This document shows, piece by piece, positions 725-57,697 of a stretch of DNA of 64,000 nucleotides. Location of the stretch: positions 101,295-165,294 of the forward strand of contig CAVXMP010000022.1 in the NCBI GenBank assembly GCA_963762925.1, read 5' to 3'. The position numbers and the translations under genes are program-made. Each line of letters opens with the position of its first letter. The stretch's first letter is position 1. The notes beneath the pieces are model-generated. The model saw only the letters and a program-made list of their open reading frames with translations. It did no database searches and had not been told where the DNA came from. Origin of the DNA: an uncultured Acidobacteriota bacterium (lineage in GTDB: Bacteria > Acidobacteriota > Vicinamibacteria > Vicinamibacterales > UBA2999).

Positions 725-763
725 ATTTGGAGATTTGGAGATTTGGGGATTTGGGATTTGGAG
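725..763. repeat. 8-nt tandem repeat (ATTTGGAG)n, about 5 units
   Basis: atttggag atttggag atttgggg atttggg atttggag. It lies in the gap between the hypothetical gene stop (820) and the rhodanese gene start (614). Confidence 0.9.
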
Positions 764-819
764 ACGTCGTGAGGCGAGGAGAGCGCCCACGCGCGCTCAC
801 TCCTCGCGCGGCGGCGGTG

Positions 820-1633
820 TCAACGCTTCACGACCGCGGCAAAACACCACTCAGGAAACGCCGGCATCATCGGTTGTGGGCCTGCGGGCTGCACGCGGGG
901 GCGGCGTTTTGCGCGAACGACGTCGTAGTGCCCATAAAAGTGATTCGCCGGCGAGGAAACGCCGAGGCCACAGACGCAGGTGTTGGAAATCATGATTGAC
1001 GTCGCCGCGGTGAACCGCAACACGCGCTGCCGGTCGAGCCTGACTGACAGCTCCTGTTCAAACGGGATCACAATCCGAAACCGCGGAAGACAATAGCGCG
1101 CGGGACCAAGCGGTGTGCCCTCGTCCACGAACTCGACTTTTCGGATGGGTCCCGCCGCCAGCGCAGTGATGTGACCAGCCGACAGTTCAATGGTCGCAGC
1201 CGTAGGACAGGCAGGATCCATCTTCGAAGACTCCGCAAGCATGCCGATGTCGGGAAGCCAATTGATGCTCGTGGCGTTCTTGTCTGGTTTTTGCGTCACG
1301 TCGACCTTGGTCTCGTCCGCGGTCAGCTGCCCGCTCGCGCCGAGAATCTCAACGTCGGTACCGAGCAAATCCCAGAGGCCGATATCGCGATCTTCTCCCG
1401 GTAAGTGAAACGGCGGCGTCGGCATCCGGTCCTCGCACGCCGCGTGCCATCTCCTCGCTGATCACAAGACCAAGCGCCGCAAAATGACGCTGGAATCCCG
1501 CCGAGGCAAGGTCAACCAACTGCACGGTGGCCGTGGCCATCTTCTTGTCGAAGACGAGCGTCGCGATGCCCGAAAAATCAATCGTGAGTTCTTGCAGCGT
1601 GCCTTTCTTCGCGTGCTTTTTTGACGGGGTCAT
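820..1633 (-). CDS. hypothetical protein, third gene of the sigma/anti-sigma-CHAT operon; one apparent frameshift near 1349-1425
   Basis: ORFs 1349..1633 (MTPSKKHAKKGTLQELTIDFSG...) and 820..1425 (...ISNTCVCGLGVSSPANHFYGHYDVV...) overlap in different frames and read as one ~270 aa protein. It starts 27 nt after the CHAT gene stop. I recognise no family and see no signal peptide. Confidence 0.5.
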
Positions 1634-1660
1634 GGCTGGGGGCTCTCCTTCGGTGACGCT

Positions 1661-4600
1661 TCATTCCAGACCGTATGCGGCAGTACCGATCCAGGTCGCG
1701 GCCGACGCACGGCAGGACATCGAGGCATAACAGACGCGTTGCGCGCGCGCGAGGGCCAGCGCCGCCGGGACGCCGTGCACGAGCGCGCGGTGTACTTCGA
1801 GAAAAAAGGGCTCGCTCGCGACATCGTCCAACTGCCAGAGCGTCCCGATGACGGATGTTGCTCCGGCGCGCAAAAACGCCGCCGTGATGGTGTTGGCGCC
1901 GGCGGTGCGTTCTGTCGCACCTGCCGCGGTTTCGCACGCCGCAAGCACCACCCGCGCGCGTGTCACACGTCCAACCAGATCGATATCGCTCAATCCATCG
2001 CGCGGTTCAGTCGCCGATCCCGCTAGCAGAATGCGCGAGCGCGTATCGGTAGAGCCTGCGACGGCATGGCCGGCAAAATGTACGACGTTCGCTCCCGACA
2101 GCCGCGAGAGCACCGCATTCTTTGTCGCACCTTCGCCAACCAGCACCGAGGCGGTTGGGTAAAGAGCCGCGACGTGGTACGCCTCTTCGCGCGCGCCCAT
2201 TAGTGCGGCGAAGCCGCTGGCCGCCGCATTCACAATGGCAGGCTCGCCGATTGCCAGGACGGAAGCCTCAGACCTCGAGCGCTCCTCGTCTATGGCTCCC
2301 GCAGCAAAGGCGAGATTCGAGGCCATTCGAACGGTGGCGCGTTCAAACACGAACTGGCGCGCGCGGCCATCGAGAAGCGAGCCGAACGGCACTGCACTGA
2401 GCGGTCCACTTGGGATGATGACGATGTGCTCGGCAGAGTCGACTCCCGGAAGATCGTGCAGCACGAGATCGTAAAGCGCCGACAGGGTACGACGCCATGT
2501 ATCTTCGTTTCGGGATCCGCGCGCGACCTGAACGCGCAACGAGGCTGCGAGCTCCGCGACCATACGCGGCTCGATGGGTCGCTGCACAAATCGCAGCCCA
2601 TCGCGTGTCGCCACCCACGTGAGCAGGGTGTCCTTGCCGAAGAGAAAGTAGATGACGATGGAACGGTCGTCGACAGCGAGCGCGAGATCGACCGCTTCTA
2701 CCGACGTCAATCGGGCCTGTTCTGGAACGCCGTCGAGGATTTCGCGGAGCCGTTCAGCAAGAAAAAGCCCCGCCGTCGTGCGAAGCGCCGGCCGCGCCTC
2801 CACGAGTGCGGCGATCGCATCAAAGGCCTCGCTGGCGTCGGCGAGTTGAATCGGCTGCGAAGCGGGGCTGCGTGCGCCGAGTAACGTGATCGCGTCGTTG
2901 ATGTCTCGCTCGGCCGCGGTGTCTCGGGAAAGTTCAGCCAGCAACCTCGCGCGCTGAAGCAAGGCGCTCGGTTTGTAGAGGGCGCGCTCCGGCCCGAGAG
3001 CGGACAGCGCCTGGTCAATGGTGCTGAGTGCCTGTGTGAAATGGCCTTCCTGTTGAAGAATCGCGGACTCGATCGCGCCGAGAAGTGGTCGGACGCGCTC
3101 GGCCCGAAGGTCACTGGACTCGGCGAGAAGCGTCCGGGCGGTGGTCACTGCGTCACGTGCGGCGGCGAGGTCGCCGTCAGTCAGCGCTGCCTTGGATTGT
3201 TCAACCAGCGCCAACAGACGCTGCAGGGATCCGACGCCGGAGAATCTGCTGTGCTCGACAACGCCGGTAAATGCCCGCGCGACTTCCCATTCGCCCTTGC
3301 GAGACAGGAACACCGAGGTGGTCAGTAAGGTGAGATACGCCTGACTCACAGAGGCGCTACGCGCATTGGTTCGCAGCGCGCGCATGCGCCATCGCCACGC
3401 GTCCACTGGAAGGCCCAGCAACTCGTGCAGGTCGGCCAGCTGCGACGACAGATTGCCAACCTGGCGCTGATACTTGGCGGCCTCGAACCGCGAGAGTGCC
3501 GCCATGTAACGGGTGGTTGCGCCTTGATAATCACCTTGAAACATGACTCGATAGCCATCAAGACGCTCCGCCCGCCCCAGGATGTACGCGTGCCCGGCGA
3601 GTTCGCCAGCGGCAACGGCGGCAATGAATCGCTGTTGCGCCCTCGCGTGGTCGCGGCGGACAACGTCGATATTGCCCAGCTCGACATCGCAAAGCGACGA
3701 CAGCACCGTGGGGGGCGACGTGCACGCGGCGCGCAGCTCGGTTTCCATCCCTGGCAGATCGTCGCGATCCCACTTGACCAGGCCGCGGCCGAACGCCTGC
3801 AACCGCACCGCTAGGCCAGTCGCATTTCCGCTACCGGTGAGTGCCACAAGGTCCGCCGCAAACGGGTCCCCCGAGGCGTCGCTGATCTGTTGGGCGTAGT
3901 TGGCGAGCGTGAGGTGTTCTGCGGCTGCACGGTTGGCATCCTCCGACAGCGCGGCTGCGGCCCATCGGGGCAAGCCTTCGCGGAGGAGCCAATCCAGGCC
4001 AGCCTCGACCGACGTGTCGGTGATTGGCGGCGGAGAATTGTTGCGCGCGAGGTCGGGCGGCGGCATGGCCTGCTGTAGCTTCTCGAGACGCGCGCGCCCT
4101 TCTGACGCCCACCCAGAGCTGCTGTCGCGGGCCAGGTAGTCCTCCCACGCCTGCCGTGCCTGATCCTCCAGAAAGAGCGCCTCGAGGGCCACGGCGCGAT
4201 TGAAGCGCGCTTCGAGAAGCGCGTCGTCCGCCTTCAATGCACGTTCGGCGGCGCCGAGTGCGCGCGGGACGTCGTCGGGACGATCGTTCTGGCGCGCGCG
4301 CGCGAGATACGCGCCGGCAAGATCGCTGTGATAACGCCCGTTCTGCGGCGCCTCGGCCACCGCATCTTCGAGCGCCCGCACGGCTTCATCATGCTGGCCG
4401 AGCACCAGGTGCGCCACGCCAAGCGCATGAAGATTTGCAGCCGAGGGATCGCGGTCGGCTTCCTCGCGGATCCTGCCGGCAGCGGCAAAGAGCGTCCAGT
4501 TGTCCGGCACGGCGGAGCTCCCCCCGGAGCGCACAGCCGCACGTAATGGACCGTAGGCAAACCCGCCGGTGAGGCGGGCCTCAATCGTCCGCTCGTTACC

Positions 4601-4996
4601 CACCGCATCGGCAAGATCCGCGAGTTTCGAGTCGATGCTTCGTCCGCCCAACAACCACCGCGAGGGCGGCAGTTCGAACATGAACGACAGCATCGCCGCG
4701 GCCGCGACCACCCACGCAACCCCCCACACCAGTGTTCTTGTGGAAGGCGTGCCAACCCCGACGAGCGGCTCCCTCGCGAGAGCACTCGCCGAGACGACAA
4801 CGGGGTCGTGGACCGCACTCTGCGTCTCGAGCACGTGCGCGACCACCACGCGGCAGTCGTCGCAGCCCGCGACATGGGCCTCGATCGCTGCGCTTTCGGT
4901 CGCACTCAAGCCCCGGTCGAGCCACGCCGCCAGGGCCTCTGGATCCGGGCAGGAATGTCCGACCGTTTCCATCGTTATGTGGTTAGACGGACTCAA
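1661..4996 (-). CDS. anti-sigma factor (zf-HC2) with one TM helix, TPR region and C-terminal CHAT (caspase-like) protease domain
   Basis: Intact 1111 aa ORF. N-terminus has HVAGCDDCRVVVAHVLE (H-x3-C-x2-C anti-sigma zinc motif) and TM-like TLVWGVAWVVAAAAMLSFMF. TPR-like helical repeats follow. C-terminus has the CHAT dyad context VVHFAGHA and VVLAACETAAG. Confidence 0.85.
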   Translation of the reverse strand: MSPSNHITMETVGHSCPDPEALAAWLDRGLSATESAAIEAHVAGCDDCRVVVAHVLETQSAVHDPVVVSASALAREPLVGVGTPSTRTLVWGVAWVVAAAAMLSFMFELPPSRWLLGGRSIDSKLADLADAVGNERTIEARLTGGFAYGPLRAAVRSGGSSAVPDNWTLFAAAGRIREEADRDPSAANLHALGVAHLVLGQHDEAVRALEDAVAEAPQNGRYHSDLAGAYLARARQNDRPDDVPRALGAAERALKADDALLEARFNRAVALEALFLEDQARQAWEDYLARDSSSGWASEGRARLEKLQQAMPPPDLARNNSPPPITDTSVEAGLDWLLREGLPRWAAAALSEDANRAAAEHLTLANYAQQISDASGDPFAADLVALTGSGNATGLAVRLQAFGRGLVKWDRDDLPGMETELRAACTSPPTVLSSLCDVELGNIDVVRRDHARAQQRFIAAVAAGELAGHAYILGRAERLDGYRVMFQGDYQGATTRYMAALSRFEAAKYQRQVGNLSSQLADLHELLGLPVDAWRWRMRALRTNARSASVSQAYLTLLTTSVFLSRKGEWEVARAFTGVVEHSRFSGVGSLQRLLALVEQSKAALTDGDLAAARDAVTTARTLLAESSDLRAERVRPLLGAIESAILQQEGHFTQALSTIDQALSALGPERALYKPSALLQRARLLAELSRDTAAERDINDAITLLGARSPASQPIQLADASEAFDAIAALVEARPALRTTAGLFLAERLREILDGVPEQARLTSVEAVDLALAVDDRSIVIYFLFGKDTLLTWVATRDGLRFVQRPIEPRMVAELAASLRVQVARGSRNEDTWRRTLSALYDLVLHDLPGVDSAEHIVIIPSGPLSAVPFGSLLDGRARQFVFERATVRMASNLAFAAGAIDEERSRSEASVLAIGEPAIVNAAASGFAALMGAREEAYHVAALYPTASVLVGEGATKNAVLSRLSGANVVHFAGHAVAGSTDTRSRILLAGSATEPRDGLSDIDLVGRVTRARVVLAACETAAGATERTAGANTITAAFLRAGATSVIGTLWQLDDVASEPFFLEVHRALVHGVPAALALARAQRVCYASMSCRASAATWIGTAAYGLE

Positions 4997-5810
4997 TTCC
5001 CGGTTCTCCCGCGGGTTCGGGACCGCTCGAGAACACGCGCCCCAGCGTCAGGGCCGGGTGACCGACCACTCGTTCGATATCGTTGGCTTCGACGCCGCGC
5101 TCGTGCAGCTTTCTGCGCAGCAGGTCGACGATCTGTTGCAGCTGTCGATACAGCCGCTTCGGAGGGATGTGCACCAGCCGACCAATGTCGGTCATCGACA
5201 GACCATCCGCGAATCGGAATTTCAGGACCAGTCGGTCGAGTGTTGCGAGGTCGCCGACGGCATCGACGAGGGCTCGCTCGACACGTTCGGCAATCTCGAG
5301 ATCGTGGTGGTGATCGAGCGCGTGATCGATGGCGCCGGCTTGCGCTCCAACGAGCGTCAGTTCCTGTTCACTCGCGAACCGACGCGGCGCGCGCACCGGT
5401 AACTGACGGTAGAGGCCCTGGAGCTCCTCACGTGTCGCCTTGCATTGATGATCGATTTGCAGCGTGCTGACCGCTTCCTCAAAGGTCCGGCCATCGCGGC
5501 ACAGCAGCTGCTCGAGCAACACCGCCAGTGGACCGAGGCGTTTCGCGGCAGACGACGGCCGCCACTTGCCCCAGCGCGCAATGCAGAAGTCGAGATAGAG
5601 CCGCTCGATGACCGTCGTCAGGTAAGTCGCGAGATTGCTCCGTCCCTGGAATTTCCGCAGGATGGCGAAGTCGCGATCGATCAGCTTGAAGCGGACGACG
5701 CTGGCGAATTCCTCCGCATCGGGTGGCGTCAGATGATGACGACGCGCGATGTACCGCACGACACGCTCGACGAGATCGAGATGTTCGAGAAGGAGTTTTT
5801 GGTAATCCAC
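4983..5810 (-). CDS. sigma-70 family (ECF-like) RNA polymerase sigma factor with extended linker
   Basis: 275 aa, GTG start. Region 2-like DAEEFASVVRFKLIDRDFAILRKFQGRSNLATYLTTVIERLYLDF and region 4.2 HTH-like GLSMTDIGRLVHIPPKRLYRQLQQIVDLLRRKL. Its stop overlaps the anti-sigma start by 14 nt. Confidence 0.8.
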   Translation of the reverse strand: MDYQKLLLEHLDLVERVVRYIARRHHLTPPDAEEFASVVRFKLIDRDFAILRKFQGRSNLATYLTTVIERLYLDFCIARWGKWRPSSAAKRLGPLAVLLEQLLCRDGRTFEEAVSTLQIDHQCKATREELQGLYRQLPVRAPRRFASEQELTLVGAQAGAIDHALDHHHDLEIAERVERALVDAVGDLATLDRLVLKFRFADGLSMTDIGRLVHIPPKRLYRQLQQIVDLLRRKLHERGVEANDIERVVGHPALTLGRVFSSGPEPAGEPGIESV

Positions 5811-5927: not shown

Positions 5928-5965
5928 CCCAAGCCGCAAGCCCCAAGCCTCGAGCCCCCAGCTCC
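5928..5965. repeat. degenerate 8-nt tandem repeat, CAAGCCCC type
   Basis: cccaagccg caagcccc aagcctcg agccccca gctcc. It lies between the sigma gene start and the hydrolase gene stop. The same unit family occurs at 29464-29524. Confidence 0.7.
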
Positions 5966-5973: not shown

Positions 5974-7176
5974 TCACGGCTGCGACGTCTGAGGCGTGAT
6001 CGCGTCGATCACCTGCCTGAAGAATTCCTCTTTCCCATTTCCATGCCAGCGCCAGACGATCACCAGATCGTGGTCGGGCGAGACGAAGATCGTGTTGCTG
6101 CCGGCGCCCTGCGCCTGGAACGAGTTGGTCGGCAGCGTCTTCGCTCCGCCGCGCGTGTTGAGCCACCACAAGAAGCCGTAATCGGGGATGTTCTTGGCCT
6201 TGGCAGGTTCGAGCGCGAGCTTGACGTATTCGCGCGGAATCAGTTGCTTGTCCCCCCACTTGCCGCCGCGTAGCCAGAGATAGCCGAACCTCGCCATGTC
6301 TGAGGCATTGATCCACACACCGCCGCCCCAGCGAGTCCCGCCGCTCACCGATGGCATCTTCTTCCCGTCAACCTCGGCGTAGCTGTTGTTGTACGGAATC
6401 CATTGCCAGGTATTCGAGGCGCCGATCGGGTTCATGATCTCGTCGCGGAAGACTTCCGGAATTGGCTTCTTGAACATGCGGAGCAGCGACAGCGAAAAGC
6501 GGTTGATGCGCACGTCGTTATATTCGTAGAACGTCCCCGGCTCTTCGAGGTCGCGCGGCTTGCGCTCGCCGTCACCGAACGCGACGGTACCCACGAAGTC
6601 GTGCTTCTTCCCCCACATCTCGCCTTCCCACTCGGTCGTTTGCTGCAGGTGGTTCTTCCAGGTGACTTTGGTGTTCTGGCGCGAGTCGTAGCCGCCGTCT
6701 TTGATCTGCAGGCTGACTGGCGATTCGAGGTTGGTGATCAGACGCTCGCGCATCGCGACGCCGGCGACCGTCGACAGCATGCTCTTCGCCACCGAATAGG
6801 TTGGCGCCACGTTGGTGATGTCGCCAAACTCCGCCGCCACATACCCGTGGCGAATGATCAGGCCGTTGGTGCCGGCGCGGCTCTTTGGGATGGGCCCGAG
6901 CAACGTGCCGAAGATCTTCTCCTGGGTTGAAAAATCGCGCGGCCAGTTGGTCTCGCGGGTCTGCGCAAAGGCTATCGCCGCGTCGAGCTTGGCCGCGTCC
7001 ATTCCAAGATCGGCGGGCGCCTTTTTCGCCCATGATCCCGCGGGCGGGTAATACGTCTCTTGCGCGGCCGGCCTTCCCTGTGCCGCCGCCGGGGCCTGCG
7101 CCGCCGGGTTCGCCTGCCCGATGGCCAGGGAGAGCGCACACAGGAATGAGAGGCTCAGAACGATTCGTTTCGACAT
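5974..7176 (-). CDS. secreted serine hydrolase, beta-lactamase/transpeptidase-like family
   Basis: Signal peptide MSKRIVLSLSFLCALSLAIGQA and an SxxK motif (YSVAKS). I trimmed the start to the internal ATG at 7176, because the first 22 codons of track ORF 5974..7242 overlap the upstream gene. Confidence 0.8.
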   Translation of the reverse strand: MSKRIVLSLSFLCALSLAIGQANPAAQAPAAAQGRPAAQETYYPPAGSWAKKAPADLGMDAAKLDAAIAFAQTRETNWPRDFSTQEKIFGTLLGPIPKSRAGTNGLIIRHGYVAAEFGDITNVAPTYSVAKSMLSTVAGVAMRERLITNLESPVSLQIKDGGYDSRQNTKVTWKNHLQQTTEWEGEMWGKKHDFVGTVAFGDGERKPRDLEEPGTFYEYNDVRINRFSLSLLRMFKKPIPEVFRDEIMNPIGASNTWQWIPYNNSYAEVDGKKMPSVSGGTRWGGGVWINASDMARFGYLWLRGGKWGDKQLIPREYVKLALEPAKAKNIPDYGFLWWLNTRGGAKTLPTNSFQAQGAGSNTIFVSPDHDLVIVWRWHGNGKEEFFRQVIDAITPQTSQP

Positions 7177-7189
7177 GTGGTCACTCCCG

Positions 7190-8710
7190 TCACATCGTGA
7201 AGACTGCAGCCAGCGTTGTAATACCACGGAAGAAGTGTCCAATCCGAAGGTTCTCGTTTTCGCCGTGTTGATTGTTGTCGAAGTTGACGAGCGGCACCGT
7301 CAGCGCCGGGAACCCAAGCGCGTCAATAAATGGCGCAATCGGCACCGTCCCGCCCATCGTCCGGATCTCGACCGGGGGCTGACCGAACACGTCGGCCAGC
7401 GCGCGTGCAAGTTGGCGTGAAACGGGCAGCAGCGGCGACGTGCGATACGCATTGGTTCCATCGCCGCGACTCGAGACCTTGACGATCTTCGGGTGTTTGG
7501 CCCGTGTCTCATCATCCGGATCGGCGGTGACCACGTGCCATCCCTGTTTCCGGATGTGCGCGATGACGAGGTCGAGCTGGCGTTGAGCGGGCGTCTCTTT
7601 GACGAGGCGGATGTCGATGTCGGCGGTCGCCTTATCGGGAATGATCGTGCGCGCGTCGGCGCCGACGAATCCGCTGGAAAGGCCGCGCACGTTGAGCGAC
7701 GGCCATTGCAGCGCGTCCTGAAGCTTCAGCCCAGGTGATTCGGGAGCGGAAATGCCGAACAGTTTCTGAAGCGCGGCGGGATCGTCGGGCACGGCATCGA
7801 GAATCGCGCGCTCTGCCGCAGTCGGCGGCGCGATCCCATCGTAGAAGCCGTCGACAAGCACCTTGCCCGCGTCGTCCTTCATCGTTGCCAGCAACTCGAC
7901 GAGGCGCATCGCGGGATTTGGCGCCCAGTTGCCGTAGTGACCGCTATGCAGCGCGAACTTGGGGCCGAACACGGTGAGCTGCACGGTGACGTTGCCGCGT
8001 GCGCCGTAGACGATCGTCGGACGCTCGCTCGGATGAACAGGCGAATCGAGAATGATCATCGCGTCGGCTGTGAGCTTGTCTCGGTATTTCACGATGGCGG
8101 GAACAAGACTGGTCGACCCTGCTTCCTCTTCGCCGTCGAGGATCACGCGAATGTTCGATGAGGGTGCCACGCCAATCGTCTTGAGCGCATCGAGTGCCGC
8201 CAGGAGCGCGACGATCGGCGCTTTGTCGTCCGACGCCGAGCGCGCGTAGATTCGCTCGTTGGGCTCGAATGATTGGCGGCGAAGCGGGTCGCCGAGGTCT
8301 GCGGCGTTATCCTCCATGCGCCCATCGCGCAGGATCGGCGAAAAGGGCGTTGGCTGCCGCCACTCCTTGGCGTTGACCGGCTGCCCGTCGTAGTGCGCGT
8401 AGATGAGCAGCGTGCGCGTGGCACCCGGCGTCTTGAGCTCGCCCCAGACCAGCGGGTTGCCGGCGGTTTCGAGCAGCTCCGCGGTGAACCCGCGCCGCGC
8501 CAGCATCTGCTGCAGCAGGTCGGCGTTCTTGCGGATGTTTTCGCGATCCGCGGCGATGTTCGGGATCGCGAGCAGTTGCACGAGCTCGCGCACGATCGCT
8601 TGCTGATTCGCGCGCACCCACGCGTCCACCTGCTGGCGCAGGCTGGTCGGCGCTTGTTCCGCCGCGAGCACGAGGCTTGTTGACGCGATGAGCGAAGCAA
8701 GAATTTTCAA
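7190..8710 (-). CDS. M20 family metallopeptidase (dipeptidase-like)
   Basis: Motifs LLIYAHYDGQP, ARSASDDKAPIVALLAAL and ILDGEEEAGS. Likely TTG start at 8710 giving signal-like (M)KILASLIASTSLVLAAEQ. The longer track ORF runs into the upstream gene. Confidence 0.85.
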   Translation of the reverse strand: MKILASLIASTSLVLAAEQAPTSLRQQVDAWVRANQQAIVRELVQLLAIPNIAADRENIRKNADLLQQMLARRGFTAELLETAGNPLVWGELKTPGATRTLLIYAHYDGQPVNAKEWRQPTPFSPILRDGRMEDNAADLGDPLRRQSFEPNERIYARSASDDKAPIVALLAALDALKTIGVAPSSNIRVILDGEEEAGSTSLVPAIVKYRDKLTADAMIILDSPVHPSERPTIVYGARGNVTVQLTVFGPKFALHSGHYGNWAPNPAMRLVELLATMKDDAGKVLVDGFYDGIAPPTAAERAILDAVPDDPAALQKLFGISAPESPGLKLQDALQWPSLNVRGLSSGFVGADARTIIPDKATADIDIRLVKETPAQRQLDLVIAHIRKQGWHVVTADPDDETRAKHPKIVKVSSRGDGTNAYRTSPLLPVSRQLARALADVFGQPPVEIRTMGGTVPIAPFIDALGFPALTVPLVNFDNNQHGENENLRIGHFFRGITTLAAVFTM

Positions 8711-8712: not shown

Positions 8713-11426
8713 TCAGTATCCCGGCCCGAGAAGCACCGCGTTCATGAACAGCAACATGCTGCCCTCGGTGAACGCCCGATAGTTCGGATCTTCCGCAAAC
8801 GCGACCACGTGACCCTGTCCAAACGGCTGGTGCATGAGAAACGGTTTCTGCACGAGCAGGTCCTGCCCCTCCGGCCAAATCAGCCCCGAGGCGATGAGCG
8901 CGTCCTTTTTGCCATAGATGCCAACGTTACGCCCGCTGTTCAACTTGATCGGCGCGAAGACGCGCGAGCCTTCGATCATGATCTGCGTTTCGGCATCCTG
9001 ACCGGCACTCAGCCAATGATCGGTGTCGATGGTGACACGAAGAATCGCACCGGGCTGCGGTTCGGGCCGCTCGCGATCCGGCTGGATGGCCTTGTCATAG
9101 TCGAACGGCTTCGCCCCACCCGCCCCGCCCGACCCACCCGGCCCAGCAGACGCACCAGCACCCGCTGCTCCACCCGCCCCACCGGACCCACCAGACCCAC
9201 CAGACCCTGCCGGCACATCTGGCGCCCCGCTCTTCAAGAGCGGCGTCGTCTCCAGCAAACCCACGCTACCGATCGTCGCCCATCTCGTCGCTTCCGCAAT
9301 CGTGACGAGCGTGCCGCCGCCGCGCAGCCAGTCTTTGAGCCGATTGACCACCGCGTCGCCGATGACGCCGGTGTAATTGCCCGAGGGGAGCACGACGACG
9401 TCGAAGTCTGAAAAGTTCACGCGGCCGAGCGACGCGGTGCGGACAATCGTCACCGGCTGGCCGAAGCGACGCTCGAGCGTGTAGCGCGTCCAGCCCGCGG
9501 ACGTCGACGCCGTTGGCGCATCCCAAGCCATCAGCACGCGCGGCTTCTTGAGGAACGCGTTCTCGCCGCTCCCGAGTGACGTGCCCGATTCGACATATGT
9601 CGTGTCGATCGGCACAAGCTCTGTGCCGTATTTGGTGGCGAGTGCGGTGAGTCGCGCGTGAAGGTCCGCGGGATTATCCGCGGTGCGGATCAGCGCGGTG
9701 CCGATCGGAAACGCACGGCCGTTGAGGGTAAATGCGCCACCGATGCTGCGCATCCGAATGCCCTGCTGAAGCGAATCCGCGGTAAATGCTGCCGCGGCGT
9801 TGCCCCATGGCATCAGGTAACCCACTTTCCCTTGCGCAAACGGCCGCGCCGTCGGCGGCGCATCGTACGTCATCGGCAGCTGCGATGCGCGCACCGATAT
9901 CGCGTTTGGACTGGTGAGCAGTTCCACGTCGTAGACATGCGGTAGGTTCCAGGCGGTGATGTCGTAGATCTGATCCGGCTGCCGCCGCGCGCGACGCTCT
10001 TCCTGTCGCTTGATGAACTCCTGGGGCTGTTCGGTCCGTGGATCGAGGAGGTTGCGAATCAGGCGGCCGGTGGGCTGCGCGTGCGAGACAAGGTAGGCAC
10101 CGGCGGGCAACTGGCGGTTGCCGATTTTGACGGGCTCCTCGGCACGCCGTACTTCGATGCCCTGCGTCGCAAGATTTCGCGCGAGGCGATCGGCGCGCGA
10201 CGGATCGTGACCCGGCACCAGCACGTACTCGCGAATCGCCGATTTCTCACCTTCGGTGACGGCGCTGCGACGGTATTCGAGAAAGTTACGCACCAGACGC
10301 TCACGGTTTTTCGCCGCGGTGATCGCCGTCGTGATCGCCGCGTTGAAGTGGTGCATCACGCCGTCGCGATATGTCAGCGTCGACTCGTCGCTTCGCGCGA
10401 ACGACAGGCTACGTGCGGAGGCCTGCTCGTAGGTCATGCCGATCGATCCGTGAAAGGTGGGCCACGAGTCGCCGTACCCGGGTAGAACGCGTCGTAGACC
10501 TCGCGGATGTAATACAACCAGCCGCGCTCGTCGAAACGGGCGGCGTTGGCGCGGCCGAACAGATCGAAGCCCTCGATCTGGTTCTTGGTCATGTGCGGGT
10601 TGAGCGGATCGGCGGGTGGGGCAAAGTAATACGAGTTCTCGCCCCCTTGCTCGTGCAGATCGACGGTCACTTCCGGAAAGTAGTCGCGCATGATCTGCAC
10701 GCGCCCGCGCGCCTCGGGCTGCGTCTGCGCAAACCAGTCGCGGTTCATATCGAACAGGTAATGGTTCGATCGACCGCCGGGCCAAGGCTCGTCGTGCTCG
10801 GCGTTGTAGGGCGTCGGATCCGGCGACATGGCACGCGACTGCAGGTTCTGGAACAGGAACCGCGCGCGGCCATCGGGATTCTGCATCGGATCGATCAGCA
10901 CGAGAGCGTCACGAAGCACGAGCTCGATGTTCGCGTCACCCTGCGACGCGAGCAGGTGATAGGCCTCCTGCAGCGCGGCGTCCGACGAGGAGATCTCGTT
11001 GCCGTGCACGCCGTGCGCGAACCACACGATCACCGGCATCTCGCGCACGAGACGATCGGCGTCACCGTCGGAAAGACCTCGCGGGTCGGCGAGCCGCTTC
11101 GCGTCAGCTTTGATGTGATCGAGCTTGGCGATGCGCTCGGGGCTGCCAATCACCATCAGCCAGAGCGGGCGGCCCTCCCAGGTTCGCGCGTATTCGGTCA
11201 AGCGCGTGCGGGTGGGAGCCGCCTTCGCGAGGGCCTGGAGATACTGCCCGACCTGATCAGGCGATGAGATCTCCCTGCCGGGATCGTGCCCGACGACCTG
11301 ACGGAGCGTAGGAACTGTCGGATCGTATTTCGCGCCCGGCCACAGCGGGTCGTCGGTCTGCGCGCCGAGCGAAGCCACGGAGACACGGAGACACAGAGAA
11401 AAGACCAAGAGAATTCGAAGATGCAT
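8713..11426 (-). CDS. M14 family zinc carboxypeptidase with large C-terminal extension; one frameshift at ~10480
   Basis: ORFs 10434..11426 (signal peptide, [21 protein letters not shown]) and 8713..10785 join as ...DAFYPG|[18 protein letters not shown]. The frame break sits in the run cccggg (10477-10482). It contains a Gly/Ser linker encoded by 9113-9207. Confidence 0.8.
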
Positions 11427-11475: not shown

Positions 11476-12402
11476 TTATCTCACCCCATCAAAATACTCG
11501 ACGATCAGCCGTGCGACCTGACCCATGCGATCCTCGGCTTCGCCATACGGTCCCTCGATCGCGTTCGCAAAAAATGAAATGACCATCGGACCAGAACGTG
11601 CGAACACAATCCCGACATCGTTGGCGAGCACGGGCGGAAAATCGCCGGTCTTGTGCGCGACCGGAACGCTCAGAAAGTGCGGAAGACGACGCGCGCCGGC
11701 CTGCTGCGCCCGCATCATCCGGATGATGTCGTCGCTGTGGTCGGACGACACGATCTTCTTGCTGTGGATCGCTTCCAGCATCCGCCCGGTCGCACGCGGC
11801 GTCATCTCGCCGAGCCAATACGTGCGGTCGGTGTTCGTCTTCTCGTTTGACGCACCCGCCGCGAGCTTGCCGTACTTTGCGAACAGGTCGCCCGTCGTCT
11901 GGGTCAGCTTCATCCCGTCGTAGCCCTGCTCATTGAGCCAGGCATTGACCCGCGCAACGCCGCCGACTTTGCCGATCGCGAGGTCGGTGGCCGTGTTGTC
12001 GCTGGTGATGACCATCTGCAGCAGCACGTCGCGCACGGTCGGCTGAAGGCCGGCGTCGTGATAGCGAAAGATGCCGGAGCCGCCTCTTACATCCTCGGGA
12101 CGAATCGTCACGCGCTCGGTGAGCGACAACTCGCCTTTTGCGGCCATCTGATAGGCAAGCACCAGCACCGGAATCTTGATGACGCTCGCACTGTTGAATG
12201 TATCGTCCGCACGAACCGCCGCTTCCTCGCCCGTCGTCAGGTGTTTAACCCAAAGGCCGGCGCGCGCCGGGAACCGTGCCAGCTCCGCGTCGAGCAGCTT
12301 CTGCAGGCCCGACGGGTTCTGCGCGGCGGCGGGGGACGCCAGGACGGCGAGCACGAGGACACCCAAAAACGCCGCGAGCGTGCGCGTTCTGTCCCTCATC
12401 AT
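11476..12402 (-). CDS. class A beta-lactamase-like serine hydrolase, secreted
   Basis: Start at [28 protein letters not shown] (12402). Carries SxxK (SVIK), SDN (TSDN) and KTG (HKTG) motifs. Confidence 0.75.
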
Positions 12403-12441
12403 CCGTGATAGCTTAGCTGCTTCCAGGCCGTCTGTGTCTGC

Positions 12442-37524: not shown

Positions 37525-37525
37525 G

Positions 37526-37821: not shown

Positions 37822-37862
37822 GACCCAACGCCCTGAGCACGGAGAAGAGCGTCCATGTCGAA

Positions 37863-37937
37863 CGTCCGTCGCGTCCGTCGCGTCCTTCGCGTCCTCTCGC
37901 TTACCTTCGTGGCCTTCGTGCTTTCGTGTTTTCGTGG
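37863..37937. repeat. degenerate 8-9 nt tandem repeat (CNTYCGTS)n, inverted relative to 37526-37696
   Basis: cgtccgtcg cgtccgtcg cgtccttcg cgtcctctcg cttaccttcgtg gccttcgtg ctttcgtg ttttcgtg g. The CTTTCGTG/CCTTCGTG units resemble the reverse complement of CACGGAAG. Confidence 0.7.
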
Positions 37938-37968
37938 CCAAGCGCTTGGCCGTCCGAACTGCCACTGC

Positions 37969-38567: not shown

Positions 38568-38629
38568 GCTTCCGTGCTTCCGAGCGTCCGAGCTTCCATG
38601 CTCACGTGCTTCCGTCCTCCGTGCTTCGG
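38568..38629. repeat. tandem repeat (CTTCCGWG)n, reverse complement of the CACGGAAG family
   Basis: gcttccgt gcttccgagcgtccgagcttccatgctcacgt gcttccgt cctccgt gcttcgg. It lies between the DUF2721 start (38536) and the oxidoreductase start (38644). Confidence 0.75.
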
Positions 38630-46239: not shown

Positions 46240-46387
46240 GGCTCCTACTTCGCTCCGTCGCGGATCTGAACGGTCCGCGCTACATGTTCACACTAACGGA
46301 CTTACCCCATGAGCGACAGTTCGGCAACATAGTGCGAACTATCTGCCACGATCCCACAATTTCTGCTAACAACGTCACGCGCCGTGT

Positions 46388-46442
46388 AAAGGGCCTGCCC
46401 CATTTACATGGCAGGCCCTTTTGTAAATGGGGCAGGCCCTTT
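46388..46442 (-). other. three-arm alternative hairpin immediately after the SxtJ stop codon
   Basis: Plus strand: A aaagggcctgccccattt (46388-46405), B ggcaggcccttt (46410-46421), C aaatggggcaggcccttt (46425-46442). A pairs perfectly with B (12 bp) or with C (18 bp). Confidence 0.6.
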
Positions 46443-46853
46443 TCAATACTGCTGAAACGAGCGTTCAGGATCGTTGGTCTGTTCGTACGGCGTCCAATGT
46501 GACGACGCGCCGCGCTGGCGCAGGCGAAGAGGGTCTCGCCCGCTCAACCGCATGACCCAACCGAGCGGGGTGAACACCAGGTAAAACATGATCCCCAGCG
46601 TCACCGTCGACACCACCAGCCCGATTGGATACGTGACCGTCATCAGACCGACAAAGAGGATGCGTGCCGCCTCGGCGCTCGCCAAGATGAGCACGGCGAG
46701 CAGCGCCCCCACCACCCAGACGATGACCGCGGTCGTCGGAGAACCGCCGCGCCACCACGTCATCGTGCCGGCCGCGACGACGAAGATCGGAAACCAGATG
46801 CGCGCAAAGGTGCGCAGCTCGCGCGCGCCGGGATTGCGATTGATGGGCAGCAT
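46443..46853 (-). CDS. SxtJ-family membrane protein
   Basis: MLPINRNPGARELRTFARIWFPIFVVAAGTMTWW...; 136 aa with 3-4 TM helices. The ATG overlaps the carbamoyltransferase TGA (TGATG). The position downstream of a NodU/CmcH carbamoyltransferase is typical. Confidence 0.6.
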   Translation of the reverse strand: MLPINRNPGARELRTFARIWFPIFVVAAGTMTWWRGGSPTTAVIVWVVGALLAVLILASAEAARILFVGLMTVTYPIGLVVSTVTLGIMFYLVFTPLGWVMRLSGRDPLRLRQRGASSHWTPYEQTNDPERSFQQY

Positions 46854-54950: not shown

Positions 54951-54988
54951 ACACGGAGGCACGGAGGCACGGAGGCACGGAAGCGGAG
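54951..54988. repeat. 8-nt tandem repeat (CACGGAGG)n, about 4.5 units
   Basis: acacggag gcacggag gcacggag gcacggaa gcggag begins 13 nt upstream of the XDH large-subunit GTG (54938). It belongs to the same family as 37526-37696. Confidence 0.9.
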
Positions 54989-55035
54989 CGTGGCATCGGC
55001 GTGTCGCGCCGGCGTGGCATCGGCGTGTCGCGCCG
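54988..55035. repeat. perfect 24-bp direct duplication
   Basis: gcgtggcatcggcgtgtcgcgccg occurs twice back to back (54988-55011 and 55012-55035). Confidence 0.9.
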
Positions 55036-55145
55036 GCGTAGCCGGCGCTGCGAGAGCTGGCGAAGGGCCGCGCGCAAACAAGCGAACGGCGCCCGGCTTG
55101 CTTGCGCACGGACCTTCGCCAGCTCTCGCGCGGCCTTCGGCCGCG
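55030..55145. other. structured intergenic module (nested hairpins), built from the same blocks as 37709-37821
   Basis: gcgccggc-gta-gccggcgc (55030-55048). Outer stem gcgagagctggcgaagg (55050-55066) / ccttcgccagctctcgc (55113-55129) is 17/17. Inner stem 55072-55083 / 55096-55107 is 11/12. Then cgcggcc-ttc-ggccgcg (55129-55145). Confidence 0.6.
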
Positions 55146-55177
55146 ACACGCGGTGTCAGGGAACCGGCGCTGGTGCC

Positions 55178-55220
55178 CATCTGCGTCATCTGCGTAATCT
55201 GTCGGAATCTGCCTAATCGC
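55178..55220. repeat. 9-nt tandem repeat, CATCTGCGT type, degenerating
   Basis: catctgcgt catctgcgt aatctgtcg gaatctgcc taatcgc ends 3 nt before the MoaD-like stop codon. Confidence 0.8.
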
Positions 55221-55223: not shown

Positions 55224-55475
55224 TCACCCGCCGGCGATGGTCGGCACAATCTCCACGACGTCGCCGCTCTTCAGCGCGTGTGAGCGCACGCCGTGGAGCA
55301 GCATTTCGTCATTGACGGCGAAGTTGTAGATGGGATCGGCGAGGGTCCGGGACAATCCTGGAATGCGGCGCCCGAGGACGTCGAGGAGCGCGCCAACGTC
55401 AGCAACGGGTTCGTCGATCGCGATCTCGCGCCCGGCCAGCGCGTGCAGCATGGACGGGAAGCGAACGAGGATCAT
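55224..55475 (-). CDS. MoaD/ThiS-family ubiquitin-like sulfur-carrier protein
   Basis: Intact 83 aa ORF ending ...GDVVEIVPTIAGG (C-terminal Gly-Gly). Its start overlaps the stop of the upstream AOR gene by 4 nt. Confidence 0.75.
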   Translation of the reverse strand: MILVRFPSMLHALAGREIAIDEPVADVGALLDVLGRRIPGLSRTLADPIYNFAVNDEMLLHGVRSHALKSGDVVEIVPTIAGG

Positions 55476-57419
55476 GCCCCCAGAACGGAGGCGAGCTCGC
55501 TGCGAAACGGCTCGCGCGGGATGCCTTCCTCGGTGAGCTGCGACACGTCGTAAAAGCGTGACAGCATGCGATCGAACTCGTCGCGGTCGATGTGCTCGCC
55601 TTTGAACGGTCCTGCGGTGCTCGGCTCGTCAAACCATCGATCCGGCAGCGTGTCGTCTTTGCGGCGCACGCCCAGCCGGTAATTGATCAATCGCTCGACG
55701 CCCATGACGTTGAGACCAACGCGATCGAGCTCTTCGACACTGAACTGCAGGCCGGTCACGTTGGCGAGTTGCTGCTGAAATTCCTCCATGCCGGGCAGAG
55801 AGGGCTGTTGAACAACTTGGTCGTGAACCGGCACATGCCAACCGCGTCGCCAACGGCGTAGATGTTCTCGCAGGCCCGTACCGCTTGCTCTTTGTCGACG
55901 TAACTGTTCGGCTCGGCACTCACGCGGCCGCCGTACAACTCCGCCTTGAATGCCGGATCGTCGTTGATCTTGGCGTTGATCTCGAGTGTGACCCGGTTGC
56001 GCAGATGATCCATGCCGCGCGTCGCGACCGCGAGACCAAGCGCGAACGCCTTGAGAATACGCGCGTCGTGCGGATCGCTTTGCCACAGCCCTTTCACCGC
56101 CATCCGGTACTTCAGCGCTTCAACCGGGTAGTGGCCCGTCTCCACCGCACGCGCACTCTCGGCCAGCACGTTGCCGAAGCCTTCGCGCCGCGACGTCATG
56201 AAGAGCAGCCGCTCGATCATCGCCGCGTCGCCCCACATCAGCTCGAGGCCGCCGGTGTGCGCCGTTGTGATGATGCCGCGTTGGAAAAGTTCGAAGGCCC
56301 ACCGAGCGTTGAGCCCATCGAGGCGGTGTCGAAACCGAGATCGTTGCAGATGTTGTTGAGACGAATGACCGCTTCGACGCTTTCGATGCCGAGGTTCGGA
56401 CCGAACTTGCCGAGCGTCACATACTCTGGTCCGTCGCCTTTGCCGTATCGATCCGCCGGGTCCGTGTGCAGATCGTTCAGCGGCCGGCAGTTCACCGGAC
56501 AACGGAAGCAGCCCTCCATCCCCGGTCGGAATGGGTCGATGTGGCCGGCGTCGAGCTTATCGGTCCAGGTCGTCTCCTGATTGTTCTTGGTGCCCATCGC
56601 GCCGAGCAGGCGGCTCGGTTTGTAGAGAAACGGCGTGCCGACCTTCGAGAGCGCTTCTTCACGACGGAGGTGCCGAGGAGTTTCCCGGCGATGTGGCGGT
56701 TGTACGGCTTGTAGGGCTGCGCGGTTGGAAATTCGCGGATTGCGGCGAGCGTCACGATGGCCTTGAGCTGCAGCGCGCCCATCTTCGCACCCGGGCCGCC
56801 GCGCGCGTAAATCGCCTTCGGCCCCGCCATGATGCCGCTCGTCAGGACAAGGTTTTCTCCGGCACGCGTGATGTTCACCATCGACATGTTGCGCGCCCAC
56901 ACGCCGCCGAGATCTCGCTGAACGGCCTCTCGCATGTCGATGTTGTCGAGGCCGACATAAGGCGCCGCGTCGCGGAACTCAAACGACGCCTTCGCGGATG
57001 ACCAGCAGTCGCCACACCGGCGCGCGGCCGTAGAACACGATATGATCGAAGCCGTTCATTCTGATGAACGACGGGAAGTAATCACCGGCATTGCAGTCCA
57101 TCAGCACGCCGGAATCAGGCGACCACGAGGTGCAGTTGCCGCGCGCAGCGCTCGGCACGAGACCTGTCAGCGGGCCGGACCCGAAGATGAGTGGAATCTC
57201 GGGATCGAGCGGCGTCCTGGTTTCGTCGAGCAGCCGGAACAGGTAATACATGTTGGCGCCGCGCCCCCCGAGCAGGGCGCGCGCGACAGGCAGAGGCGTG
57301 TAGGCGCGTTCGATTTCGCTCCGTTCGAGATCCACGAAGACCGTCTCGCCCTGGGCGGCGTACTGCGGCGCACGCGGCATCTCAGACAGCAGACGGGCAA
57401 CGCGCTCGCGGATAGCCAT
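55472..57419 (-). pseudogene. aldehyde:ferredoxin oxidoreductase (tungstopterin AOR family); at least 4 frame breaks
   Basis: The N-domain ORF 56979..57419 has ...LGGRGANMYYLFRLL...PLIFGSGPLTG...SPDSGVLMDCNAGDYFP. Later fragments: GCFRCPVNCRP (4Fe-4S Cys motif), GPEYVTLGKFGPNLGI, NICNDLGFDT, WAFELFQRGIIT, AVATRGMDHLR and CRFTTKLF. Confidence 0.8.
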
Positions 57420-57427
57420 CCGCGCCC

Positions 57428-57456
57428 AATATAGCGTGTCTTGAACGGTTGTTCAA
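57428..57456 (-). promoter_or_regulatory. candidate sigma-70 promoter with overlapping palindromic operator upstream of the AOR gene
   Basis: Minus strand: cTTGAACaaccgttcaagacacgcTATATTgggcgcggATG. The -35 TTGAAC is followed by a 17 nt spacer and the -10 TATATT, which ends 8 nt before the ATG (57419). This predicts a near-leaderless mRNA. TTGAAC-N4-GTTCAA is a perfect palindrome (57441-57456). Confidence 0.4.
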
Positions 57457-57494
57457 AGAGCGACACCGCGGGCCGTGCATCCCCGTGTAGAGAA

Positions 57495-57697
57495 GGTCTG
57501 GTGGGTCGGGTGGCTGGTGAGGCTGGCGGGGCTGGTGAGTCGGGTGGGGCTGGTGGGTCGGGTAGGTCTGGTTGATCAGGCAGGTAGGTGTGGTCGAGCA
57601 ATGCGCAACCCCGAATCCGTGATCCCCCACCAGACTTACCCGACCTACCCGACCGAAGACGACCGACCCGCCCGACCCGACCTACCGACGACCCGAC
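57495..57697. repeat. inverted pair of degenerate repeat arrays (GGTSGGKY)n ... (RMCCSACC)n around a ~30-nt core
   Basis: Left arm 57495-57594: ggtctggtgggtcgggtggctggtgaggctggcggggctggtgagtcgggtggggctggtgggtcgggtaggtctgg... Right arm 57625-57697: ccccaccagacttacccgacctacccgaccgaagacgaccgacccgcccgacccgacctaccgacgacccgac. It lies in the divergent AOR/GGT promoter region. Confidence 0.85.

Follow-up and report, generated by a model that had tools for sequence, protein, structure and literature searches.

Intergenic tandem arrays of 7-9 nt units and their hairpins in a Vicinamibacterales genome and its relatives

Introduction

The closest described relatives of the elements studied here are the long simple sequence repeats (LSSRs) of bacteria, which have units of 5-11 nt, with heptamers the commonest, and for which slippage and poor mismatch repair of the larger loops have been proposed (PMC4679880, PMC4060949). 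The class was described by Mrazek, Guo and Shah in 2007, as summarised in the same two papers. Here, we analyse tandem arrays of 7-9 nt units that lie between the genes of one stretch of DNA from an uncultured bacterium of the Vicinamibacterales (Acidobacteriota), positions 101,295-165,294 of contig CAVXMP010000022.1 in assembly GCA_963762925.1. This whole stretch of 64,000 nt is called the window.

Several other systems invite comparison. The short tandemly repeated repetitive (STRR) sequences of cyanobacteria, described by Mazel and colleagues in 1990, reportedly include STRR1 CCCCAGT, STRR2 TTGGTCA and STRR3 CAACAGT. Repetitive extragenic palindromic (REP) sequences have a conserved palindromic unit of 20-40 nt that is spread by a REP-associated tyrosine transposase (RAYT), and their inverted doublets form hairpins and can stabilise the upstream mRNA. 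Hairpin terminators that lack a U-tract ("I-shaped") have been proposed for GC-rich bacteria such as mycobacteria.

In Xanthomonas, about 90% of the GGGAATC repeats are intergenic; they adjoin or overlap the stop codon of the upstream open reading frame (ORF) and are frequently found in inverted pairs (Rehm et al. 2015, PMC4692102). Related species keep the gene neighbourhood and the single or paired type of these repeats, while the length varies (PMC4692102). The TAACTGA repeats of marine Beggiatoaceae consist of one unit in 2-6 copies, placed a few nucleotides upstream of start codons, and a post-transcriptional role was proposed for them with S1, Csp or CsrA as candidate binders (MacGregor 2015, PMC4679880).

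Results

Arrays in the window and in related genomes

The arrays described here are real and intergenic, they adjoin stop codons, they are preferentially inverted and stable when folded, and their position is kept while unit and copy number change. They were detected with Tandem Repeats Finder (TRF) at periods 7-9 and a score of at least 50 or at least 40, and each array was also read directly. At the higher threshold TRF returns 16 rows in the window and none in 30 dinucleotide-preserving shuffles; at the lower one it returns 20, where the shuffles have a mean of 0.1. A 50-kb control from E. coli K-12 contains no array of period 7-9. The units are 7, 8 or 9 nt long and are present in 3-21 copies with 70-100% matches (TRF). 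Within the window, array DNA totals about 1,300 bp (2%).

After merging of TRF rows the window holds five intergenic arrays of period 7, five of period 8 and eight of period 9, and every array of the first two periods is intergenic. The neighbours of the arrays were defined by Pfam scans and by three syntenic contigs with gene calls, here L001, L002 and L003, whose proteins are 86%, 89% and 73% identical to those of the window, 89% being the closest relative available. To these we added 80 metagenome contigs (511 kb), each with a gene whose product is related to the M28 peptidase of the window (45-61% identity), which gives a sample of 563 kb from relatives. By a codon-model gene caller 88.4% of the sample is coding and about 11.6% non-coding.

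In the relatives, 35 arrays of period 7 are intergenic and 5 coding, and at period 8 the numbers are 17 and 3. Together, 52 of 60 lie between genes where 11.6% would be expected (P ~2e-40), in line with the earlier note on the window, which had placed such arrays between genes rather than inside them. The corresponding numbers are 10 intergenic and 17 coding at period 9, 2 and 25 at period 12, and 9 and 14 at period 15. Another TRF count in the relatives, with coding and intergenic arrays pooled, has 35 arrays of period 7, 18 of period 8 and 25 of period 9. Per 10 kb there are about 3 arrays in the window and 1.8 in the relatives, where roughly one intergenic gap in six to eight holds an array; in the window it is more. 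Array richness is a lineage-wide trait.

Arrays occupy orthologous gaps in at least six independent assemblies (ENA, JGI, NCBI), k-mer (short-read) assemblies included. Among these are the MEGAHIT and SPAdes-type contigs L002, L003, L203 and L205, whose orthologous gaps hold arrays.

The earlier note had named seven unit families, and TRF and direct reading recovered all of them at the same place or within a few bases. Two of its entries had to be revised. The stretch 32661-32810, given as a 9-mer array, is really a 28-nt minisatellite (94% matches) containing GTCATCTGCGGC, and at 27172-27227, given as a CCTGAYMC array, there are just two to three scattered copies of CCTGATA. The CACGGAGA array at 11376-11399 was absent from its list. 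The arrays of the window are collected in Table 1, together with the genes found to be broken.

Table 1. Arrays, associated structures and broken genes in the window. Copy numbers follow the unit; z, fold z-score against shuffles; MFE, minimum free energy; strand in brackets.
Position	Unit or feature	Setting	Pairing and fold	Basis
725-764	ATTTGGAG x5	Between minus-strand genes ORF 820-1425 and rhodanese 3-614/665	Unpaired	TRF, direct reading, Pfam
5928-5965	CAAGCCS x5 (GGGGCTTG on sense strand)	9 nt from stop of beta-lactamase-family gene 5974-7242 (-); upstream of sigma-70-like gene 4983-5810 (-)		
11376-11399	CACGGAGA x3	Between M14 peptidase 10434-11426 (-) and beta-lactamase2 11476-12837 (-)		TRF, Pfam
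20494-20528	CCGACCCRC-type 9/18-nt array	Directly after true stop CTA 20529-20531 (-) of frameshifted GH88		
21576-21837 (-)	GCAGATGAC x3.9 (21576-21611) and GTCATCTGC x3.2+ (21784-21837)	Proximal arm 21576-21611 abuts GH88 start; arm 21784-21837 overlaps aconitase stop (21818)	Inverted pair; 29-nt arms, 100% complementary, 185 nt apart; MFE -114.5, z -5.5	
23908-24043	CCTGAYC x~17	Fills divergent gap, aconitase start 23877 (-) to M28 peptidase start 24070 (+)	Unpaired	
25681-25806 (+)	CAGTTYC x~6 / GGAACTG x~4	Begins 3 nt past M28 stop (25678), ends 13 nt short of MatE start (25819)	Array-armed hairpin; 43-nt arms, 84% complementary; MFE -65.7, z -7.5	
27172-27227	CCTGATA remnant, weak	Just after MatE stop (27169); orthologous to ACCTGAC x7 in L003		No TRF call
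27932-27981	CCTGACA(C) x~6.9	Abuts Amidohydro_2 start codon (27981); CCTGATC x4.3 at the equivalent site of L001		
29464-29524	GGGGCTTGGGGG facing CAAGCCCC-type array x6	Fills convergent gap PEMT (+, stop 29443) / BNR/Sortilin (-, stop 29525), abutting the latter stop	Hairpin; z -4.3 (+ strand), -4.1 (- strand)	
32662-32810	28-nt minisatellite x4.9 (ATCGGCGTCATCTGCGGCCTATTCATTC), preceded by two GTCATCTGC-like 9-mers	Lactamase_B stop (32802) to probable BNR start (32659), ending 3 nt before that start		
37526-37696	GCACGGAR x21, largest array	Begins 2 nt after MacB-type permease stop (37524)	Inverted pair with 37863-37937; z -8.8	
37697-37862	Unique 166-nt core	Between the arms	Own hairpin 37727-37801, 29-nt arms, z -10	
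37863-37937	CGTCCGTCG x3, then CTTCGTG/TTTCGTG x4	~35 nt from DUF2721 stop; orthologous to TTTCGTG arms in L002 and L203	Diverged inverted arm	
38568-38629	GCTTCCGT x7.6, inverted GCACGGAA	Divergent gap DUF2721 (-) / alcohol dehydrogenase (+, ATG 38645)		
54952-55220	Composite gap: CACGGAGG x3.8 (54952-54988), 24-mer x2.2 (54988-55039), hairpin (55050-55129), CATCTGCGT x4.3 (55179-55220)	Downstream of ThiS stop (55224, -)	34-nt-arm hairpin; z -7.8	
57495-57697	GGTCKGGTG x~9 (57495-57572) and CCCGACC-type x~7 (57626-57697)	Divergent gap AFOR (-) / gamma-glutamyltranspeptidase (GGT) (+)	Inverted pair; MFE -116.9, z -4.4	
20491-21633	GH88, broken	Frameshift/in-frame stop		
21818-23877	Aconitase, broken	Frameshift/in-frame stop		
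24070-25678	M28 peptidase, broken	Frameshift/in-frame stop		
25819-27169	MatE, broken	Frameshift/in-frame stop		
37943-38536	DUF2721, broken	Frameshift/in-frame stop		
55472-57419	AFOR, broken	Frameshift/in-frame stop		
57855-58812	GGT, broken	Frameshift/in-frame stop		

Placement and folding

In codirectional gaps the median distance of an array is 9.5 nt from the upstream stop codon and 115 nt from the next start codon. Arrays occur in 33% of the convergent gaps, 11% of the codirectional and 16% of the divergent ones; without the gap downstream of M28, which was sampled repeatedly, the convergent gaps are at 22% and the codirectional at 8%. That an array often fills its gap from stop to start, as the earlier note had it, is correct at several sites (20494-20528, 25681, 37526, 29524 and the 28-mer array). 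A consistent strand orientation of the units relative to transcription was also considered and rejected, as the same unit is found in sense and antisense.

Neighbouring arrays are nearly always mutually inverted. Among 16 array pairs within 400 nt, 12 share 6-mers with the reverse complement of the partner and essentially none are direct. Five such pairs lie in the window (21576/21784, 25681/25764, 29464/29482, 37526/37863 and 57495/57626), and as single strands all of them fold far more stably than their shuffles (Table 1). Intergenic gaps of 40-300 nt reach z<-3 more often when they hold an array (odds ratio ~7, P ~2e-7), and for convergent gaps the fractions are 67% with and 23% without arrays. 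This structural theme of adjacent, inverted, hairpin-forming arrays is absent from the earlier note. Of its entries, 21577-21611, 29464-29481, 37863-37937, 38568-38629 and 57495-57572 are the inverted arms, and five of the sites are inverted pairs.

In its array gaps the window also contains long, nearly perfect hairpins that are not repetitive, at 37727-37801 (29-nt arms, z -10), 55050-55129 (34-nt arms, z -7.8) and 46385-46445 (24-nt arms, z -6.9). The first two adjoin CACGGARG arrays, and none of the three has another copy in any fetched sequence. Longer-period minisatellites share gaps with short-unit arrays at 32673-32807 (28 nt, 4.9 copies, 94%) and 54988-55039 (24 nt, 2.2 copies, 100%).

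A consensus scan for hairpin-plus-T-run terminators places none downstream of the genes that flank the arrays. Its matches inside the array gaps are just those at 21799, 32675 and 32786, all on the plus strand, whereas the genes at these sites are on the minus strand. Known RNA families and tRNAs were not found in the array gaps.

Change at orthologous gaps

Three gaps were followed through the relatives. What is conserved in all three is the position and, in gaps with paired arrays, the pairing; the unit, the copy number and the orientation are not.

The gap after the M28 stop contains an array in 20 of 54 relatives, and the unit is nearly always another one. Of 37 such gaps 21 fold with z<-3, and most are strongly folded with or without an array call by TRF. 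Plain GC hairpins are seen in L131 (GGCGGGTCTCAAGACCCGCC), L166 and L154, and hairpins whose arms have two or three units in L143 and L126. Long array-armed hairpins occur in L141, L162, L158 (13-mers), L003, L205 and the window (CAGTTYC facing GGAACTG). In L141, five copies of GGGGTCTT face 15 copies of CAAGACCY, and the unit is the stem sequence of the simple hairpin in L131. The most extreme array-armed hairpin is that of L205 (130-465), where about 20 AAGTTCA units face about 25 AACTTTC units in a 330-nt M28/MatE gap with an MFE of -132 kcal/mol.

The convergent gap between the permease and DUF2721 has no array in L001, L003 and L204, whereas L002 and L203 have a hairpin in which each arm consists of about four CACGAAA units. 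In the window one arm has reached 21 GCACGGAA units, and the loop has received the unique 166-nt core as an insertion. Relative to L001, a 455-bp block (37518-37972) is an indel. Unequal copy numbers of the two arms are common, such as 5 and 15, or 21 and about 8, which fits independent slippage rather than a designed structure.

In the divergent gap between aconitase and M28 the array is enclosed by two -10-like boxes (TACAAT or TATGAT), which are about 9 nt away from the respective ATG. The unit is (CT)10, CCGGGAT, TCAGGGA or CCCTGAY in different relatives, in either orientation. To judge from these predicted boxes, the two genes may have leaderless or very short-leader transcripts in some relatives, with the array upstream of both promoters. 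Arrays with such boxes were seen in L129 (5290-5345), L132, L140, L142, L135 and L003 (1140-1255), and in the window at 23870-24070.

The CCTGAY remnants at 27172-27227 and 27932-27981 flank a truncated insertion sequence at 27230-27872 on the minus strand, consisting of a helix-turn-helix domain and the N-terminal part of an rve integrase core. L003 has one single ACCTGAC array after MatE. The element was probably inserted into an ancestral array and split it.

The gaps of the relatives also contain a dispersed REP-like palindrome, GCGGRCCTRAAGGYCCGCGCTACATGT, which was observed in L001 (15-45, 4388-4414, 4480-4502, 7669-7716 and 18381-18408), L003 (5433) and L205 (2390 and 2431). It is absent from the 64-kb window, and related genomes thus fill their gaps with different repeat types.

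Shared units

That the same units recur at distant loci, as the earlier note reported, is borne out by five of the seven families within the 64 kb. Between loci there are 15 pairs of identical units where a composition-matched null gives 0.86, and 57 pairs against 16 when one mismatch is allowed. GCACGGAA is found after MatE in L123 and L199, and in the window after the permease and at 11376, 38568 and 54952; CAAGCCC, TTTGGAG and AGTTCCC also recur at non-orthologous loci. Some of the sharing is due to descent at orthologous gaps, but not all of it. Shared flanks, or further copies of the hairpin cores and minisatellites, were not found in the fetched sequences, where all of them are unique.

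The composition of the units was studied in 80 intergenic arrays from the window and the relatives. The most enriched trinucleotide is GGA/TCC (42% against 26% in nulls, z ~3.5-4); at the level of unit families the enrichment has z 2.6, is post hoc and is not significant after correction. ACA, ATG, GTA and ATA are depleted within units. A run of three G or three C is present in 35% of the units, compared to 24% of permuted units.

The CCTGAY unit is not specific to the lineage. With one genome per species scanned, four-copy CCTGAYN arrays occur in at least 118 contigs, and the matches listed include Acidobacteriota, Cyanobacteria, Chloroflexota, Planctomycetota, Verrucomicrobiota, Bacteroidota and Actinomycetota. 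Among the contigs listed, period 7 is dominant and there are 138 unit types. In a scan of viral contigs CACGGARG x3 gave three matches and GTCATCTGC x3 five, and those of the 9-mer are acidic repeats within coding sequence of low-GC viruses. Of the three CACGGAGG matches, two are x3 arrays in GC-rich IMG/VR contigs classed as viral, L207 (2176-2199) and L208 (6254-6277), and one of these is followed by a canonical terminator of A-tract, GC hairpin and T-tract.

Host, genes and sequence quality

The G+C content of the window is 64-65%. The best named relatives of the MacB-type permease gene (35077-37524) are Vicinamibacterales, and the gene content is typical of Acidobacteriota; the label "acidobacterium-like" that the earlier note had given the genome therefore fits. 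Genes were mapped with a codon-usage gene caller trained on the window and checked with Pfam and synteny. The arrays are flanked by GH88, aconitase, M28 peptidase, MatE, the insertion sequence (rve) fragment, amidohydrolase, PEMT and BNR/Sortilin, then by a metallo-beta-lactamase fold protein, an M20 peptidase, the permease, DUF2721 and alcohol dehydrogenase, and further along by ThiS, AFOR and GGT.

At least seven genes of the window carry frameshifts or in-frame stops, and their orthologues in L003 and L001 are intact. The cause is probably either an error-prone long-read consensus or a decaying genome with widespread pseudogenisation. Because of the many frameshifted genes, exact array copy numbers may be off and should be read with caution.

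The start of GH88 bears on one of the arrays. If it is ATG 21633, the arm 21576-21611 falls inside the gene, and the 9-mer array (21573-21633, minus strand) is in frame and would encode the hydrophobic core of a signal-peptide-like N-terminus, MLTTIQRSICAICVICVICGLAV. Among the fetched related loci there is no orthologue of GH88 that could fix the start codon. At 9112-9207 on the minus strand a CCCACCAGA-like 9/18-nt repeat was rejected as part of the phenomenon, as it is in-frame coding sequence for the GSGGSGG-type linker of gene 8713-10437. This linker is rich in Gly, Ser and Ala, and its DNA resembles the intergenic GACCCACC family. In practice, the arrays will confuse gene callers, which extend ORFs through them.

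Comparison with known repeat systems

The arrays of the window have every defining feature of LSSRs with units of 5-11 nt. Like these, they are made of short head-to-tail units in runs whose length exceeds chance expectation, units of about 7 nt are predominant, units that are not a multiple of three are kept out of genes, and the occurrence is phylogenetically sporadic. They differ in their very high density, and in the window 8- and 9-mers are as common as 7-mers. Further, the Vicinamibacterales (Acidobacteriota) are not among the LSSR-rich taxa described in the searchable literature, in which nothing specific on tandem repeats in Vicinamibacteria or Acidobacteria was found. The earlier note knew of no described mechanism or function for such arrays; this was too strong, as the class is known and causes have been proposed (PMC4679880, PMC4060949).

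With the GGGAATC repeats of Xanthomonas the arrays share the intergenic location next to stop codons, the inverted pairs able to form stem-loops, and a conserved position with variable length. However, each Xanthomonas genome has a single G-rich unit, which has the potential to form G-quadruplexes, whereas here at least seven unrelated units are found in 64 kb, and the unit itself changes among relatives at a given gap. Membership in a class of G-quadruplex heptamers, with at least three G in every unit and at least four units, was rejected, as only 35% of the units have a G3/C3 run and GCACGGAA, GTCATCTGC and ATTTGGAG have none.

The earlier note had likened the arrays to STRR sequences. The likeness is apt with regard to intergenic tandem arrays of about 7-nt units and to few families at many loci, here in a host outside the cyanobacteria. 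Compared with the STRR units given above, CCCAGTT of the window is one mismatch from CCCAGTC, a rotation of STRR1, and no family is identical. STRR sequences, which are mentioned in PMC4692102, are likewise a few tandem heptamer families dispersed in intergenic DNA, and CCTGAY arrays also occur in Anabaena, Dolichospermum, Okeania and Microcystis. The differences are the other phylum, the GC-rich genome, the mixture of 7, 8 and 9 nt units and the strong inverted pairing. Strict membership was rejected, since the units differ and the host is not a (heterocystous) cyanobacterium.

The TAACTGA repeats are also heptamer direct repeats between genes at many loci, but the arrays here are longer, mainly adjoin stop codons, comprise several families and are often inverted. 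Membership in this type was rejected: the unit is absent and the arrays are nearer to stops than to starts, although those at 27932-27981 and 32662-32810 abut start codons.

REP sequences, bacterial interspersed mosaic elements (BIMEs) and REP doublets forming hairpins (REPINs), all of the Gammaproteobacteria, resemble the arrays in being intergenic, often downstream of genes, and in having inverted doublets and mosaic gaps such as that at 54952-55220. They differ in their conserved unit, for which the window has arms of tandem 7-9-mers. REP/REPIN membership was rejected because the window has no dispersed family besides the arrays, the hairpin cores are unique and the REP-like motif of the relatives is absent.

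As in I-shaped terminators, stable GC-containing hairpins without a T-run stand right after stop codons and are enriched in convergent gaps. A GC-rich hairpin lies directly downstream of genes with a fold z of -4 to -10. The arms here are repetitive and up to more than 150 nt long, and termination would have to be regarded as conjectural. Canonical intrinsic terminators were rejected, as the hairpin is present and the T-run is not. CRISPR arrays, in which repeats of 23-47 nt alternate with unique spacers about as long, were rejected as well, since the units are contiguous without spacers.

Discussion

We think it somewhat likely that the arrays are long simple-sequence repeats of the STRR/LSSR type that arose by slippage and template-switch expansion of unconstrained intergenic DNA, in particular of the arms of hairpins at gene 3' ends. 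Slipped-strand mispairing together with intrastrand template switching would create arrays and turn them over wherever neither coding nor core-promoter constraint applies. Insertion and deletion loops of 7-9 nt would escape methyl-directed mismatch repair, and the arrays would therefore persist. For repeats of this class, slippage and a less efficient mismatch repair of loops above 3-4 nt have already been put forward (PMC4679880, PMC4060949).

Seeding would take place preferentially at hairpins at the 3' ends of genes. The tandem units would be duplicated pieces of the hairpin stem, and each arm would grow or shrink independently. The hairpin itself would be the conserved, plausibly selected element, either as a terminator without U-tract or as a stem-loop that protects the 3' end. 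Two further points are in favour of this account: the array gaps lack canonical hairpin-plus-T-run terminators, and in Xanthomonas such repeats coincide with the start or stop of a transcript more often than control repeats do (PMC4692102). Unpaired arrays would occupy further spacers on which no constraint acts, such as those between two divergent core promoters. We infer slippage with escape from mismatch repair, the origin from hairpin seeds and the terminator or RNA-stabilising role from the comparisons above.

Some observations weigh against this explanation. The same units are present at non-orthologous loci, both in the window and in relatives whose marker proteins are 45-61% identical. 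Such recurrence is not predicted by purely local slippage, and it keeps two rivals alive, namely copying of a REPIN- or MITE-like kind (MITE, miniature inverted-repeat transposable element) and sequence-specific binding. Isolated single-copy units outside arrays, which might act as seeds, are not enriched. Over half of the arrays are unpaired and three of the array-bearing gaps in the window are divergent, so a role as 3' hairpin cannot apply there. No T-run was seen after the hairpin arms by direct reading, which leaves terminator activity a conjecture. Finally, the gene boundaries in the related loci come from our own codon-model caller and not from curated annotation.

It is possible, but unlikely, that the Vicinamibacterales share a vocabulary of 7-9 nt units (GCACGGAA, CCTGAYC, AGTTYCC, CAAGMCC, ATTTGGWG and others) from which self-extending array-armed hairpins are built. 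These would replace hairpin-plus-U terminators as factor-independent terminators or 3'-end protectors. They would be spread from gap to gap by ectopic template switching or an unrecognised enzyme, or they would be kept because an RNA- or DNA-binding protein reads each unit, such as a GGA-binding CsrA-like factor. If this were true, the arrays would be a new class of expandable, semi-mobile regulatory element, and not neutral microsatellites.

Unlikely to the same degree is a mobile family like REPINs or MITEs, in which a RAYT-type enzyme or ectopic template switching would bring copies of pre-formed hairpins or array segments to new intergenic sites, with local expansion afterwards. It would account for a few unit families recurring at distant loci in either orientation, as five of the seven do within the window, and for unit sharing between non-orthologous loci far above the composition-matched null. 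Inverted doublets that form intergenic hairpins are the architecture of REPINs, the true REP-like palindrome GCGGRCCTRAAGGYCCGCGCTACATGT is present in the close relatives L001, L003 and L205, and the 455-bp indel against L001 fits as well. However, conserved flanks, terminal repeats and target-site duplications were not seen at the edges of arrays, the cores at 37697-37862 and 55040-55178 are found nowhere else in the fetched sequences, and single units outside arrays are not in excess. Orthologous gaps change gradually in place, rather than by presence or absence of a fixed element. No RAYT/Y1 transposase was found among the about 20 ORFs scanned with Pfam.

We have more doubt about multivalent binding sites in RNA or DNA, which a CsrA/Rsm-type GGA binder, ribosomal protein S1 or a cold-shock or nucleoid protein would use to tune translation, mRNA stability or promoter activity. 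The unit vocabulary is common across the order, GGA/TCC is the top trinucleotide, and 21 copies of GCACGGAA would offer 21 ANGGA motifs. Start codons with no Shine-Dalgarno sequence directly adjoin some of the arrays (27932-27981), and binders of this kind were proposed for the TAACTGA repeats (MacGregor 2015, PMC4679880). On the other hand, orientation is not kept, GCACGGAA being sense after the permease and antisense in L123, in L199 and at 11376, and the units of one orthologous gap vary without restriction. At least one array is probably untranscribed, as it is located upstream of both -10-like boxes. Seven or more binders would be required, and the GGA signal, post hoc as it is, does not survive correction at the family level.

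By analogy with what was proposed for GGGAATC of Xanthomonas and GGGGAYT of Nostoc, non-B DNA (G-quadruplex, i-motif or cruciform) might be selected for effects on replication, recombination or supercoiling, which we regard as improbable here. Some units (CCCTGAY, CAAGCCCC, CAGTTCCC, GACCCACC) have G3/C3 runs at a spacing of 7-8 nt, with the mild overall enrichment given above, and the inverted pairs could extrude cruciforms. Two thirds of the units, however, have no G3 tract, and these include the unit of the largest array (GCACGGAA) and GTCATCTGC.

Contingency loci, where a change in copy number would switch the adjacent genes (phase variation), are slightly more improbable still. Arrays lie in the promoter or 5' regions of some genes (23908-24043, 27932-27981, 38568-38629) and copy number differs among relatives, but most arrays are downstream of genes or in convergent gaps, the neighbours are ordinary housekeeping and hydrolase genes, and the host belongs to a free-living soil lineage. 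In addition, gain or loss of copies in a periodic array beside a -10 box leaves the upstream context as it was.

An assembly or sequencing artefact, which the many frameshifted genes might suggest through an error-prone consensus that leaves exact copy numbers uncertain, is effectively refuted by the arrays at orthologous gaps of independent assemblies, k-mer ones included, and in 80 unrelated metagenome contigs; an artefact and a location as often inside genes as between them were the two outcomes that would have spoken against the earlier note, and neither applies.

Conclusions

The arrays are an unusually rich extension of a known repeat class to a new phylum-level lineage, and not a new kind of repeat. 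If the ordinary explanation by slippage and expansion holds, they represent a well-documented case of such an extension. Their value lies in the density and diversity of the arrays, in the clear link to hairpin arms, and in a comparative series that makes origin and function testable.

The lineage is a good comparative system for heptamer-type repeats of bacteria such as STRR sequences and LSSRs, as one gap can be traced from a plain hairpin to a 330-nt array-armed hairpin. In cultured Vicinamibacteria (Luteitalea, Vicinamibacter) it can be tested whether hairpin arms are the seeds of arrays and whether the structures mark transcript 3' ends. The arrays will also affect assembly and strain typing, and they offer ready-made variable-number tandem repeat markers for an abundant group of soil bacteria.

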